From: a virus
Taxonomy: Duplodnaviria; Heunggongvirae; Uroviricota; Caudoviricetes
Virus record (IMG/VR): IMGVR_UViG_2541047883_000004
DNA length: 42,149 bases
Direction: 5' to 3' (one strand)
In this document: piece after piece, positions 21,627-37,945 of the stretch
Layout: every line of letters starts with the position of its first letter
Numbering within the stretch: position 1 is the first letter of the stretch
Notes under the pieces: generated by a model
Databases searched by the model: none
What the model was told of the DNA's origin: nothing
Seen by the model: the letters and a program-made list of their open reading frames with translations, nothing else
Translations under genes and position numbers: made by a program

Positions 21627-21842
21627 TCACTTTCTTAAATCTAACGATAGACGGCTAACATTTAAGTATTGTGAAATATTATCAAATGTAATCATCATTG
21701 ATTTACAAAAGATACATTTTGCCCCGAAAGGATTCCTGTCAGAAACATCAAAAGATGATGTTCTATACTGAGAACCATGGCAACACGGGCATCTAAAGTG
21801 AATATGGTTTGTAATATTATCTACCTCAAAGTGCCACAACAT
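21627..21842 (-). CDS. Possible zinc-ribbon small protein (CPCC ... CIFC)
   Basis: ORF with four Cys in ribbon spacing, ending directly before the terminator. It overlaps the csp 3' end, so the start is uncertain. Confidence 0.3.
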
Positions 21843-22038
21843 GAACAGCCGCGGGGCCTTTAGGTCCGTTCTCAATACCAAATTCGACTTCCTGATTCTC
21901 AGTTAACGTTTTGAAATCGTTGCTCTGAATAGCTGAGAAATGGACAAACACATCTTTGCTACCATCTTTCGGCGTGATGAAACCAAAACCTTTTTCAGGG
22001 TTAAACCATTTCACTAAACCAGTCATTTTGTTAGACAT
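21826..22038 (-). CDS. cspI: Cold-shock protein, CspA family (CspI-like)
   Basis: [38 protein letters not shown] ... with RNP1/RNP2 motifs; long AT-rich 5' leader (22042-22400) typical of csp genes. Confidence 0.8.
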
Positions 22039-22401
22039 CATTATTACCTTTTGAAGAAGTTAGCCCTTGGGCAGAATGGTCCGAAAAAAAATATCAGAGA
22101 GAAAAACCAACAAGGAAATCTCAAGAGGTACAAATAATAAAATTATAACAATGACTGCTTCAGATAATTTTGTAACAAACCAGAACACCATTAACGCATG
22201 ATTAACCAACCATAGCAAGGATTACTTTTGTAAAGAAAAACACACGAATGAAACAATAGCTTTATTTATTAATAAAACGTGTCATTCTGTCTAATGACCT
22301 TTTATCTTACCCTTAAGATTTCAAGGATTTTGACTCATGGAAGAGTCCTTTTTATTTAAATTTCACATTCAGCGCTAAAAATAATCCGATTTAATATTAA
22401 T

Positions 22402-31418: not shown

Positions 31419-31574
31419 TTACTCCTCAGGTTCGTAAGCTGTGAAGACAGCGACCTCCGTCTGGCCGGTTCGGATTCGTACCTCGCAGAGGTCTTTCCTC
31501 GTTACCAGTGCCGTCACTATGACGGTTAAACAGATGACGATCAGGGCGATTAACATCGCCTTTTGCTGCTTCAT
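31419..31574 (-). CDS. hok: Hok-family type I toxin
   Basis: MKQQKAMLIALIVICLTVIVTALVTRKDLCEVRIRTGQTEVAVFTAYEPEE, colinear with Hok (... [28 protein letters not shown]) as recalled. Confidence 0.85.
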   Translation of the reverse strand: MKQQKAMLIALIVICLTVIVTALVTRKDLCEVRIRTGQTEVAVFTAYEPEE

Positions 31575-31640
31575 AGCCTGCTTCTCCTTGCCTTCCGGCA
31601 CGAAAGAGGCTAACCTACATGTGTCTAGCATGAAATTGGC
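31560..31640 (+). ncRNA. Candidate Sok-like antisense RNA region over the hok leader
   Basis: Position only, from established hok/sok organisation. Promoter and 3' end not identified in the sequence. Confidence 0.25.
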
Positions 31641-32197
31641 CTCAGATTAATGTTAAGCGTCTTGCAGGACGCGTAATGTTAACTGGGGCTTTTCTCTATC
31701 TGCCGTTGGTGTTCATGCCTGAGGCAGATAGCCTCAAGCACCCGCAGCAATTCTACTTAACTCACGTCACCTCGCCAATATAAAATCAATCAGAAAGGCG
31801 ATCCGTAAGAACAACAGCAAGACAATAAATTGCCATTACAGCCGCAATAGCTAGCGCACATTTGAGAACCAGCACGACAACCTCCTGAATTGGAAGTACA
31901 CCAGTCCTGATAAATATGAGGCTGTCTCGTCAGTGATTCAATACAACTATTGGGTATAGTTTCTCAGATTTTTTTCTGTGGAAATTGGACACAACACCCG
32001 CTCACCACCAGCACTTCTTTAAACACACCTAGTCAGGATCCCGCCTGACCTTTTATAACACGTAACTGTTAACTGACAGGCAATAGCCTGTCGGATATTA
32101 CAATGTCAGCTCTTGGTGCGAAGCTGTCGCACTAATTCTGTGAGCGAAGAACGGACATTTTCATTGTTGATACAGGATACATTGAAGTAGTCAACCA

Positions 32198-35327: not shown

Positions 35328-35420
35328 GATTCGCTCCATAAAACTGAACGCCAAAAGTTTAATAATCAAAACCAAAGAAAGTCAAGAAACAAAACCATCT
35401 GTGTTTTAAAATCAAAACAT
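35328..35420. promoter_or_regulatory. Right operator/promoter region (OR, PR, PRM candidates)
   Basis: Palindromes GTGTTTT-N6-AAAACAT (35401-35420), AAAAC-N7-GTTTT (35390-35406) and AAACT-N11-AGTTT (35339-35360). The cI ATG overlaps the last operator. Confidence 0.55.
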
Positions 35421-36057
35421 GAACAAGCAAACAATATCTGAACGCATAACCCAACGTATGCATGCGCTAAACTTGAAAGGCAAAGACCTTGTCAATGCCA
35501 CTGGCGCATCAAAAGGCTCCGTAAGTCAATGGATGAACGGTGGAGGAGCGCCGTCCTCGCGTTACATAAGCTCACTGGCAAAGATATTGAAAGTAAACGA
35601 AAATTGGCTTCTTAATGGAGGAGAGTTAAATACAGGTGATTCGCTTGATCTATCTTTACCGCCGATAAAAACGGTTCCGCTACTATCACTTCAGCAGGCA
35701 GCAAGCTGGAGTGATTATATGAAAAATTCCTCAATAACCTCTTGTGTGCAGCTTGTCGGAGAAATCCCGGCCAATACCTTTGCTGTTGTTCTAGAGAGTG
35801 ACAGTATGTCGACATCTGGTGGTGGAGTTTCCATCCCAAATGGTTCAACAGTTTTTGTTGATCCCGATCGAATCGTACAACCAGGAAATATTGTCCTTGC
35901 CTTACCCAAAGGGACCACAACGCCTGTCATTCGCAAACTGGAGATAGAAGGGCCGGATATTCTTTTAGTCCCCACGAATCCTCGCTACCCTTCAATTATG
36001 CTGGATGATCTATCTTGCATATTGGGAGTATGCTTTAAAATTCAACAAGATATTTAA
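35419..36057 (+). CDS. cI: CI-type repressor (N-terminal XRE HTH plus C-terminal S24 LexA-like autopeptidase domain)
   Basis: HTH (LKGKDLVNATGASKGSVSQWMNG) and a C-terminal S24-like domain with Ser (DSMS) and Lys (VIRKL) context. Confidence 0.8.
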   Translation: MNKQTISERITQRMHALNLKGKDLVNATGASKGSVSQWMNGGGAPSSRYISSLAKILKVNENWLLNGGELNTGDSLDLSLPPIKTVPLLSLQQAASWSDYMKNSSITSCVQLVGEIPANTFAVVLESDSMSTSGGGVSIPNGSTVFVDPDRIVQPGNIVLALPKGTTTPVIRKLEIEGPDILLVPTNPRYPSIMLDDLSCILGVCFKIQQDI

Positions 36058-36268: not shown

Positions 36269-36505
36269 ATGACGGCAGGGTTCAACTTTAATAACTATGC
36301 AGCAGGTTTTTGTTCCGCTACCCCGGCGTTAAGGGGAAATGAGGTCAGCATGGATACTATCGATCTTGGCAACAGCGAATCTCTGGTGTACGGCGTGTTT
36401 CCCAACCAGGACGGCACGTTCACCGCGATGACGTATACCAAAAGCAAAACGTTTAAAACCGAAAATGGTGCCCGTCGCTGGCTGGAAAGAAACTCAGGTG
36501 AGTGA
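36269..36505 (+). CDS. Hypothetical early-left protein
   Basis: ORF only; first ORF downstream of the PL candidate; not N-like. Confidence 0.3.
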   Translation: MTAGFNFNNYAAGFCSATPALRGNEVSMDTIDLGNSESLVYGVFPNQDGTFTAMTYTKSKTFKTENGARRWLERNSGE

Positions 36506-36506
36506 T

Positions 36507-37082
36507 ATGGATTTCGACACAATCATGGAAAAGGCTTACGAAGAATACTTCGAAGGCCTTGCCGAAGGCGAAGAAGCTCTCAGCTTCAGTGAGTTTAAAC
36601 AGGCCCTCAGAATAAGAATGTGCTCTCACAATGACGCGGAGCACAAATATGAGAAGCAAAATCAGACCGCAGAAAATTTTGTTCTGGAACCCGGAGAAAC
36701 GCTTTTCAAAATTCCCGTTACGTGCCCCATTTGCGGTTTTACATCAGAAGAACTTGACGACTCCTGTAACAATCAGGAAACAACCAAGTATGTCGAAGAT
36801 GATACCGAGTGCGCACGAAGAACGATTATATCCACGAGTCCAAACTCCAGGACCAATAAATCTCACTTTGAGAGGGTGATTAATCCACTCCCCCAAACCA
36901 ATAAAAAAGATGCCGGAGGACAAAAAACCCAATGGAACAACGGGATATCTGTCAAAAAAAGACGTTCCATTAAAGACAAACAACGCAGCGCCAACAACTG
37001 TAAGCGCTTTATACCAGTAATCAATTTTCATGTTCTTAAGCGGATTTATTGGTGGTTGCGACATTGCTTAATGAATCCTTAA
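36507..37082 (+). CDS. Hypothetical protein with zinc-ribbon-like CPICG motif
   Basis: Start MDFDTIMEKAYEEY with SD GGTGAG, 1 nt after the preceding stop. Confidence 0.4.
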   Translation: MDFDTIMEKAYEEYFEGLAEGEEALSFSEFKQALRIRMCSHNDAEHKYEKQNQTAENFVLEPGETLFKIPVTCPICGFTSEELDDSCNNQETTKYVEDDTECARRTIISTSPNSRTNKSHFERVINPLPQTNKKDAGGQKTQWNNGISVKKRRSIKDKQRSANNCKRFIPVINFHVLKRIYWWLRHCLMNP

Positions 37083-37568
37083 AACTGTGGTGATTTTAAG
37101 GATACCACCTCGCCTGACGTGGTTAAAAGCAGGCACACAACACGAAAGCGCACGGCGAAGTTCGTCTCACTGTACGGTGTCGTTAAATTTAATTCGACCG
37201 TGCGCTTCCGGTTGTGGCAACCCGCGAAATGGCGCGGCGGTAAGTATGGCGGGGTTATTCCTTCCCCGTTGAGGACACCGGGTTGTCAGGTTGACCATAC
37301 GCTTAAGTGACAACCCCGCTGCAACGCCCTCTGTTATCAATTTTCTGGTGACGTTTAGCGGTATCAGTTTTACTCCGTGACTGCTCTGCCGCCGTTTTTA
37401 AAGTGAATTTTGTGATGCGGTGAATGCGGCTGAGCGCACGCGGAACAGTTAAAACCAAAAACAGTGTTATGGGTGGATTCTCTGTATCCGACGTTAATTG
37501 TTAACTGGTTAACGTCACCTGGAGGCACCAGGCACTGCATCACAAAATTCATTGTTGAGGACGCGATA

Positions 37569-37757
37569 ATGAAAACGTTATTACCAAACGTTAATACGTC
37601 TGAAGGTTGTTTTGAAATTGGTGTCACTATCAGTAACCCAGTATTTACTGAAGATGCCATTAACAAGAGAAAACAAGAACGGGAGCTATTAAATAAAGTA
37701 TGCATTCTTTCAATGCTGGCCCGTTTACGTCCGATACAAAAAGGATGCTGGCAATGA
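37569..37757 (+). CDS. Hypothetical small protein
   Basis: Start MKTLLPNVNTSEG with SD GAGGA. Confidence 0.4.
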   Translation: MKTLLPNVNTSEGCFEIGVTISNPVFTEDAINKRKQERELLNKVCILSMLARLRPIQKGCWQ

Positions 37758-37945
37758 ATACAGCATTTGCACTTGTTCTGACAGTTTTTCTTGTTTCCGG
37801 AGAACCAGTTGATATTGCAGTCAGTGTTCACAGGACAATGCAGGAGTGTGTGACTGCAGCAACCGAACAGAAAATTCCCGGTAACTGTTACCCTGTCGAT
37901 AAAGTTATTCACCAGGATAATAACGAAATCCCGGCAGGTCTTTAA
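37754..37945 (+). CDS. Hypothetical small protein with signal-peptide-like N-terminus
   Basis: Start MNTAFALVLTVFLVSGEP overlaps the upstream stop (ATGA). Confidence 0.4.
   Translation: MNTAFALVLTVFLVSGEPVDIAVSVHRTMQECVTAATEQKIPGNCYPVDKVIHQDNNEIPAGL

Follow-up and report, generated by a model that had tools for sequence, protein, structure and literature searches.

A conserved four-way-junction RNA in the leader ahead of DicF and its terminator in a Qin-like prophage

DicF is among the oldest known bacterial small RNAs (sRNAs), and the dicBF operon affects cell division, metabolism, phage resistance and the virulence of enterohaemorrhagic Escherichia coli (EHEC). Here we analyse positions 37083-37370 of a 42,149-nt Caudoviricetes sequence (IMG/VR record IMGVR_UViG_2541047883_000004; this whole sequence is called the window), a stretch which an earlier note, made from the letters alone, had picked out as GC-rich, hairpin-dense and non-coding. 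It contains a conserved RNA (hereafter the junction, or the element) that is built as a four-way junction with a pseudoknot and lies just upstream of DicF. DicF, its terminator and its processing are already known; the junction is a leader RNA standing before an early terminator, and its fold is undescribed.

DicF was located in a “long untranslated region” (PMC5069750). Its 5′ end is generated by RNase E, and its 3′ end either by termination (53 nt) or by an RNase III cut of the read-through transcript (72 nt); in vivo, the DicF terminator both stops and passes transcription (PMC5069750, PMC9438474). Expression of dicB and ydfD requires passage of this terminator.

Two classes of nascent RNA that suppress termination are the closest described systems in terms of logic. 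EAR (eps-associated RNA) of Bacillus, an intra-operonic RNA of about 120 nt with a pseudoknot, provides read-through of downstream terminators without a dedicated protein. The put RNAs of the lambdoid phages HK022 and HK639, of about 70 nt and with two stem-loops arranged in a V shape, suppress termination independently of other factors via the β′ zinc-binding domain. put lies before the terminators, acts untethered and remains on the polymerase when it is cut from the transcript (PMC9378689).

The noted stretch is well supported as the untranslated leader of a dicBF-type early-left operon in a Qin-like lambdoid prophage devoid of ydfC, since its 3′ end overlaps DicF, and dicB and ydfD follow downstream. 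The likeness to the Qin dicBF locus of E. coli K-12 extends to ydfA upstream and to the junction before dicF, whereas the window differs in the absence of ydfC, in an extra 191-amino-acid (aa) open reading frame (ORF) together with an opposite-strand ORF before the leader, and in its repressor, which is of the cI/S24 type while that of K-12 is DicA. Like put, the element is a cis-encoded structured RNA with conserved unpaired nucleotides, which belongs to the early operon of phages lacking N and is placed between the repressor-controlled promoter and the terminators. Unlike put, it has 115 nt and four helices around a junction plus a pseudoknot, and it is present in one copy per phage, in the left operon, whereas HK022 has putL and putR. 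EAR comes from another phylum and gives no match in sequence or structure (no Rfam family at E = 10 on the stretch). In its proposed mode of action the element resembles put and EAR in logic, its structure being unrelated to either.

Structure and conservation of the junction RNA

All four inverted repeats read from the letters in the earlier note were recovered at their sites by sequence reading and a repeat search. The change in sequence character was also confirmed, with a GC content of 0.555 and 0.550 in 200-nt windows over 37100-37399 and of 0.37-0.45 in the flanks. The overlapping ORFs are indeed only short ones (61 and 63 aa on the + strand, both with GTG starts, and 57 aa on the − strand), and neither of the two on the + strand matches Pfam. 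Folding energy, proposed in the note as a check, is weak evidence when taken alone (z = −2.46 for 37083-37400, + strand); the real support comes from conservation and from the compensatory changes across homologues which the covariance analysis, also proposed there, revealed in a core that no Rfam family covers. The repeats, and the parts of the structure suggested by a comparison of 23 representatives, are as follows.

37149-37155 / 37198-37204, inverted repeat CGCACGG / CCGTGCG, extending to 13 nt at 92%
37222-37226 / 37233-37237, inverted repeat CCGCG / CGCGG, loop AAATGG
37250-37254 / 37264-37268, inverted repeat CGGGG / CCCCG
37281-37288 / 37308-37315, inverted repeat GGTTGTCA / TGACAACC, found by the repeat search as 9 nt at 100%
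37211-37325, + strand, four-way-junction RNA with pseudoknot, 115 nt (class of about 120 nt), from covariation and covariance model R1
37211-37218 / 37318-37325, + strand, helix P1
37222-37226 / 37233-37237, + strand, helix P2, loop AAAUGG
37250-37254 / 37264-37268, + strand, helix P3, a variable hairpin
37280-37288 / 37308-37316, + strand, helix P4, with a conserved 19-nt loop at 37289-37307
37244-37249 / 37295-37300, + strand, pseudoknot between GUAUGG and CCAUAC, the latter within the P4 loop

Model R1 finds the element at 37207-37333 with 146 bits as the sole match in the window, with no second copy in the rightward operon. The minimum free energy (MFE) fold of the isolated core corresponds to P1-P4 both in the window and in the homologues from cdtI, F1055 and Izhakiella. 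In a plain MAFFT alignment, 92.5% of cells pair, compared with 34-51% when the partners are slid, and 11 pairs show two-sided changes versus 0-6. An alignment of 71 distinct sequences made with R1 gives 95.7% of pairing cells and two-sided changes in 13 pairs. When metagenome variants are included (56 distinct sequences), 94.7% of cells pair versus 35-55% with slid partners, and two-sided changes affect 15 pairs and 66 cells versus at most 8 and 25, although the aligned sequences are related and the cells do not represent independent events.

Covariation supports P1, P3, P4 and the pseudoknot, while helix P2 shows none in any alignment. P3 is hypervariable with its stem kept, and P1 is recoded in the cdtI-type phages and in the metagenome contig L211. 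P4 is wholly recoded with compensation in Izhakiella (GGGUAACCA/UGGUUACCC) and in L211 (GGAUCACCA/UGGUGAUCC). The single variable pair of the pseudoknot changes from U-A to C-G in the phage P1 lineage and, separately, in two Qin-type sequences. Two unpaired segments, J2/3 (GGCGGUAAG) and the 19-nt loop of P4, hardly vary between E. coli, Erwinia, Izhakiella and phage P1, a constancy that the retrieval patterns forced in part. There are 83 G-U cells versus 36 A-C cells, which indicates that the structured molecule is the + strand transcript. The same asymmetry argues for RNA rather than DNA and against the recombination site which had been offered as one reading of the repeats and in favour of which nothing was found.

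No Rfam 15 family covers 37100-37340, either at the gathering score or at E ≤ 10 with permissive filters. A tRNA-like cloverleaf was considered and rejected: ARAGORN called no tRNA or tmRNA in 36900-37700, the arm and loop sizes do not fit, and a conserved CCA is missing. The P3 loop was rejected both as an anti-Shine-Dalgarno sequence and as a pseudoknot partner of GAGGA 37271-37275, as neither loop nor partner is conserved (L109, phage P1, L211, L269).

Distribution of the junction and its setting in the leader

Of 5426 complete E. coli genomes, 4315 (about 80%) carry a 127-nt core of the element, in up to 8 copies each, and no annotated feature lies under it among the matches listed. The copy in K-12 MG1655 (1649247-1649373), with an R1 score identical to that of the window, ends 8 nt before the annotated dicF (1649382-1649434) and is itself unannotated in the curated record. 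BLAST of the core against phage records returned 63-65 records, and in every annotated context the core is carried on the early-operon strand. In mEp460, HannyBb, Tritos and other Qin-like phages it stands ahead of DicF and dicB. In cdtI, 2H10, Ayreon, the Stx2c phages and Salmonella phage F1055 it follows cI at a distance of a few hundred nt, and DicF is not called there. In phages P1 and P7 it heads the ban operon (tRNAs, tciABC, ban), its start lying some 25-45 nt past the annotated Pban promoters, which are controlled by C1. The core forms a separable module and also occurs where the DicF seed is missing.

The similarity between phage P1 and dicF was noticed earlier: the P1 records AF234172 and AF234173 contain a “dicF-like region” (68791-68892), which overlaps the 3′ half of the junction copy and the terminator. 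This annotation reflects sequence similarity only, with no structure, 5′ half or function, and the P1 copy has no DicF seed and is not called DicF by Rfam.

An exact-pattern scan using one genome per species added Escherichia albertii, E. ruysiae, Shigella, Citrobacter, Trabulsiella, Erwinia tracheiphila and Izhakiella. Common element lengths are 127, 128 and 131 nt, and close relatives differ by 1, 2 or 4 nt. The scan also gave matches in metagenome-assembled genomes labelled as Bacillota, Veillonella parvula and Collinsella (L015, L016, L020), which look like mis-binned enterobacterial prophage DNA, and a match in Massilia (L010), where the rest of the element is missing by eye and which is probably due to chance. 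In a record named Actinobacillus phage vB_Apl-pPE4 (L145, 2982-3300), the 5′ half of the element (the 5′ arm of helix P1 and part of P2) is replaced and the block after the element, including the terminator, is tandemly duplicated; its neighbours ydaT, DicA-like, Kil and exonuclease VIII look enterobacterial. Phage cdtI (L004) carries a C4 antisense RNA (RF01695) adjoining an isrK RNA (RF01394) at 40-228 on the − strand, in its rightward region.

The association with terminators is nearly universal. A hairpin with a T-run follows within 150 nt in 79 of the 80 distinct downstream flanks, at a median distance of 61 nt, compared with 146 of 600 random stretches. These terminators comprise at least seven unrelated sequences, and the T-run lies 18-110 nt from the model end across lineages. 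Between the element and the terminator arms there is no conserved complementarity in 15 lineages (z from −2.2 to +1.5 with a shuffled-arm control). The J2/3 string GGCGGUA was discarded as a mimic of the 5′ arm of the terminator, being non-significant across lineages and missing in phage P1. As a separate observation, a Shine-Dalgarno sequence with a start codon is located in the terminator loop, 10-110 nt after the element, in F1055 (L005), Trabulsiella (L021), Erwinia (L023), Izhakiella (L024) and L200. The frame starting there crosses both the 3′ arm of the terminator and its T-run (MFYRGTALFTQ* in Trabulsiella is one example), so that translation could melt the terminator.

In the window, the element is followed by DicF and by a long stem.

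37342-37394, + strand, DicF sRNA (Rfam RF00039 at 37343-37394, 64.8 bits with a gathering score of 48, model positions 1-52 of 52)
37343-37352, + strand, DicF seed UUCUGGUGAC
37358-37363 / 37387-37392, + strand, DicF terminator hairpin, followed by the T-run TTTTT at 37395-37399
37393-37563, + strand, long post-DicF hairpin with a stem of about 30 bp (37393-37422 / 37533-37563), outside the noted stretch

The membership of DicF is supported by the family covariance model, which scores above the gathering threshold, by the 3′ terminator hairpin with its U-run in a dicB-type operon (dicB starts 175 nt downstream), and by a position corresponding to that of the annotated K-12 dicF. The suggestion of a structured sRNA in the earlier note proved apt in two senses: the last 28 nt of the noted stretch, which ends at 37370, 24 nt short of the DicF end (37394), are the 5′ part of DicF (RF00039, 64.8 bits), and covariation marks the GC-rich core as a structured RNA that has been conserved. 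Its alternative suggestion of a termination region also holds, as the intrinsic terminator of DicF lies just beyond the stretch and a terminator follows the element almost everywhere.

The long post-DicF hairpin is unusually stable (z = −5.0; none of 200 shuffles is as stable), and the dicB Shine-Dalgarno sequence (37557-37561) lies within the 3′ strand of its stem. A match to STnc100 that stays below threshold (RF02076, 34.5 bits versus a gathering score of 47) overlaps the hairpin. Judging from PMC5069750, RNase III probably cleaves this stem to give the 72-nt DicF, and the stem may gate dicB translation.

Upstream of the junction, the leader contains two further hairpins.

37112-37134, + strand, leader hairpin H1 (GCCUG 37112-37116 / CAGGC 37130-37134), read from the sequence
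37132-37158, + strand, segment A, the 5′ strand of the upstream hairpin (RNAduplex, MFE folds)
37195-37218, + strand, segment B, the 3′ strand of the upstream hairpin (repeat search, MFE folds, RNAduplex)

H1 marks the start of the leader block common to other lineages, the homology beginning at about 37099, and it recurs with changed stems (GCUGG/CCAGC, CCUGG/CCAGG) in L189 and cdtI by eye. The A:B duplex has an energy of −34.3 kcal/mol versus −20.7 ± 2.7 for shuffled B. It is found in every lambdoid lineage (−26 to −35 kcal/mol), its inner helix being fully recoded with compensation. It is missing in phage P1, where transcription starts just upstream, and P7 likewise has no A:B competitor. 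CACAAC 37136-37141 in segment A pairs with the 5′ arm of helix P1. Since the last 8 nt of B (37211-37218) constitute this arm, a transcript can form either the full A:B duplex or P1 but not both. As an alternative partner for B, a copy of A beyond the terminator (A′) was rejected for the window (−22.7 versus −22.9 when shuffled); in F1055-type lineages the pairing is plausible (−20 to −29 kcal/mol). A sigma-70 promoter scan called nothing at about 37065-37100; a weak GATACC/−35 pattern is visible by eye in three lineages. The F1055/cdtI-type leaders also contain two tRNA look-alikes, each within a long hairpin: GGTTCGATTCC, which resembles a T-arm, and CGGGCTCATAACCC, which is like the anticodon arm of tRNA-fMet; the sites are between A and B (L005, L172, L189) and after the terminator (L004, L051, L172).

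Possible action on termination and alternative explanations

We tentatively suggest, with a probability of roughly 0.4, that the junction is a cis-acting leader RNA which lowers termination at the terminator following it. According to this suggestion, the folded junction would act in cis on the polymerase which has just transcribed it, decreasing termination at the next intrinsic terminator. Unmodified complexes would stop at the DicF terminator, producing the 53-nt DicF, while modified complexes would continue into dicB, ydfD and the recombination genes, and the 72-nt DicF would be cut later from the read-through transcripts at the long RNase III stem. Segment A and the 3′ arm of P1 compete for the same partner, the P1 5′ arm, and this could set the fraction of transcripts with an active junction. 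Action in cis on the polymerase is suggested because both terminated and read-through DicF products are documented and because a strong terminator is met 150 nt into the ban operon of phage P1. The absence of conserved complementarity to the terminator arms speaks for action on the polymerase rather than for a classical attenuator based on hairpin swapping. RNase III-type duplexes bracketing the unit would be no bar to such a mode, since put RNA stays on the polymerase when it is cut from the transcript.

A number of results weigh against this reading. The most divergent member, L211, provides the only flank without a terminator. A simple scan of the window revealed no excess of further downstream terminators (6 versus 5.0 expected), leaving the need for processive action unsupported, and the element of the window lies about 1 kb from the predicted pL rather than adjoining it. 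The A:B duplex, formed first in transcription, wins the MFE folds of the larger region and would block helix P1, and the fold of the 131-nt core is non-significant by energy (z = −0.53). Two of the three covariation alignments were fitted to the model, and the retrieval patterns held GGCGCGGCGGTAAG and GGTTGACCAT, or the P4 loop, invariant, so that 24-29 positions were forced. Searches for kinship with put were negative in both directions. HK022 putL and putR were located by the residue numbering of PMC9378689 and the putL-like RNA of HK639 from its annotation; R1 misses the put RNAs of HK022 and HK639 with filters off, and model R2, which was built from the three put RNAs and recovers all of them at 76-95 bits, has no match at E ≤ 10, again with filters off, either in the window or in five loci carrying the element. 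Rfam makes no put call in HK022. Short strings shared by eye (CGAA.GGCGCG, CCAUGCG, GGGUU..CAGG.UGA) are therefore no evidence of membership, and homology with put was rejected.

In a more specific form of the proposal, the junction would be a third, structurally independent class of nascent-RNA antiterminators after put and EAR, which would bind the E. coli RNA polymerase, explain the passage of the first early terminator in N-less lambdoid phages and in the P1 ban operon, and set the split of DicF between termination and read-through. We regard this form as doubtful.

The same data can be read with termination left unaffected. The junction would then be a domain for processing or stability, or an independent stable RNA: as the 5′ body of the terminated leader it would position or protect the tail for RNase E and RNase III, or it would act in trans by binding a host factor. 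That the element and the terminator travel together in almost all lineages agrees with such a role, as do the DicF nature of the tail between junction and terminator in the Qin type, the resemblance of cdtI-type terminator stems to the DicF stem, the long duplexes resembling RNase III substrates which bracket the unit (A:B and 37393-37563), and the documented processing of DicF by RNase E and RNase III (PMC9438474, PMC5069750). We nevertheless consider it unlikely, though it is a main rival of the proposal. The tail varies (DicF seed, unrelated, or almost missing) while the junction loops are near-invariant, which is more than a mere scaffold would need; L211 has the junction with no terminator to serve; and two papers on DicF report no junction-sized stable species (PMC9438474, PMC5069750). 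A conditional attenuator, in which P1 or A:B is favoured according to whether the junction has bound a metabolite or a protein of the host or phage, with consequences for termination or for the processing and translation of downstream genes, would account for the riboswitch-like pattern (helices covary while junction and loop nucleotides are fixed), for the two conserved, mutually exclusive helices sharing the P1 5′ arm, and for the terminator directly after the junction. It becomes improbable in view of the lack of conserved complementarity between the element and either terminator arm in the 15 lineages, the variable distance to the terminator and the presence of the junction in P1 and P7 without the A:B competitor; there is also no Rfam riboswitch match and no theme in gene functions that would hint at a ligand.

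A nutL-type region was among the possibilities named in the earlier note; a nut site of the lambda type, with boxA and a boxB-like hairpin recruiting N and Nus factors, is very improbable. The cdtI/F1055-type leaders do have a boxA-like (A/G)UGCUCU(C/U)U just 5′ of helix P1 and a hairpin with a purine-rich loop further upstream. At that site, however, the window reads GUGCGCUUCC, which is not boxA (CGCUCUUA-like, single-stranded) and is base-paired with segment A. In the lineages compared, the boxA-like segment covaries with A (UGCUCUC:GAGAGCA, GUGCGC:GCGCAC, CGCUCUU:AAGAGCG), so it is the pairing and not the boxA sequence that is conserved, and the early-left ORFs of the window, mEp460, cdtI, 2H10 and F1055 showed no N-like protein. 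Least credible of all is that one of the GTG-start, arginine-rich ORFs (37087-37272 or 37119-37310) is a real gene. The 37087 frame is open in 42 of the 56 homologues, but the 37119 frame in only 15 of them. Neither RefSeq/PGAP nor the curated K-12 record annotates anything there, neither ORF matches Pfam, and the element differs in length by 1, 2 or 4 nt between close relatives, with compensatory substitutions in its helices; the DicF literature itself describes the region as long untranslated (PMC5069750). No protein-coding gene was found to span the region, and ydfC is an insertion of other genomes that lies upstream of the core and is lacking here.

Neighbouring genes and significance of the junction

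The genes around the leader agree with its assignment to a dicBF-type operon.

35419-36054, cI-type S24 repressor (Pfam)
36350-36502, YdfA/DUF1391 (Pfam)
37569-37757, + strand, dicB (Pfam DicB, 7.8e-38, listed at 37569-37754)
37754-37945, + strand, ydfD (Pfam DUF1482, 3.7e-25, listed at 37754-37942)

E. coli Ecol_316 contains a 100% identical stretch, in which RefSeq annotates ydfA, a ydfB fragment, dicB, a DUF1482 protein and an exonuclease, with nothing between the ydfB fragment and dicB. Alignment with a ydfC-bearing locus (L002) demonstrated that ydfC (72 aa), annotated nearby in other genomes and missing from the window, represents an insertion of about 375 nt at 37122/37123, upstream of the GC-rich core and within H1. 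The insert is flanked by an imperfect direct repeat, TTAAAAGCAGGCA / CTGAAAGGTCAGACCA (L002 2060-2278), which suggests that the gene was gained or lost by recombination within the leader.

The 191-aa ORF (36507-37082, + strand) matches PHROG 35040, of unknown function, over its full length and is YdfB-like only in its first 34 aa; the RefSeq annotation at this site is the ydfB fragment only. The 3′ half of the 191-aa ORF is overlapped by a hydrophobic ORF of 106 aa (36744-37064, − strand), for which neither Pfam nor PHROG gives a match. Between the stop of the 191-aa ORF and the conserved leader, a perfect 10-bp AU-rich hairpin (ATCCTTAAAA / TTTTAAGGAT) occupies 37075-37103, at the break in homology with ydfC-type loci; it is lineage-specific and lies outside the conserved unit and partly inside the noted stretch. 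Elsewhere in the prophage, Rfam identifies a sok antitoxin RNA of a hok/sok-type module (31569-31743, − strand, 114.7 bits) and a cspA-type 5′ UTR (untranslated region) thermoregulator (21780-22196, − strand, 112.8 bits).

Neither Rfam 15, nor RefSeq with its curated K-12 record, nor a full-text literature search yielded an account of the structure or function of the junction; an older description at the sequence level is possible. The junction places a conserved, complex fold directly before the point at which transcription either stops at DicF or runs on into dicB. Because about 80% of complete E. coli genomes, that of K-12 among them, carry it, as do active lambdoid phages, P1 and P7, its role is testable in standard strains. 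Should it not act on the polymerase, it would still be an unannotated structured RNA family worth a public covariance model. If it does act on RNA polymerase, it would represent a new structural solution to antitermination by RNA alone and a new handle on the control of early genes in prophages.

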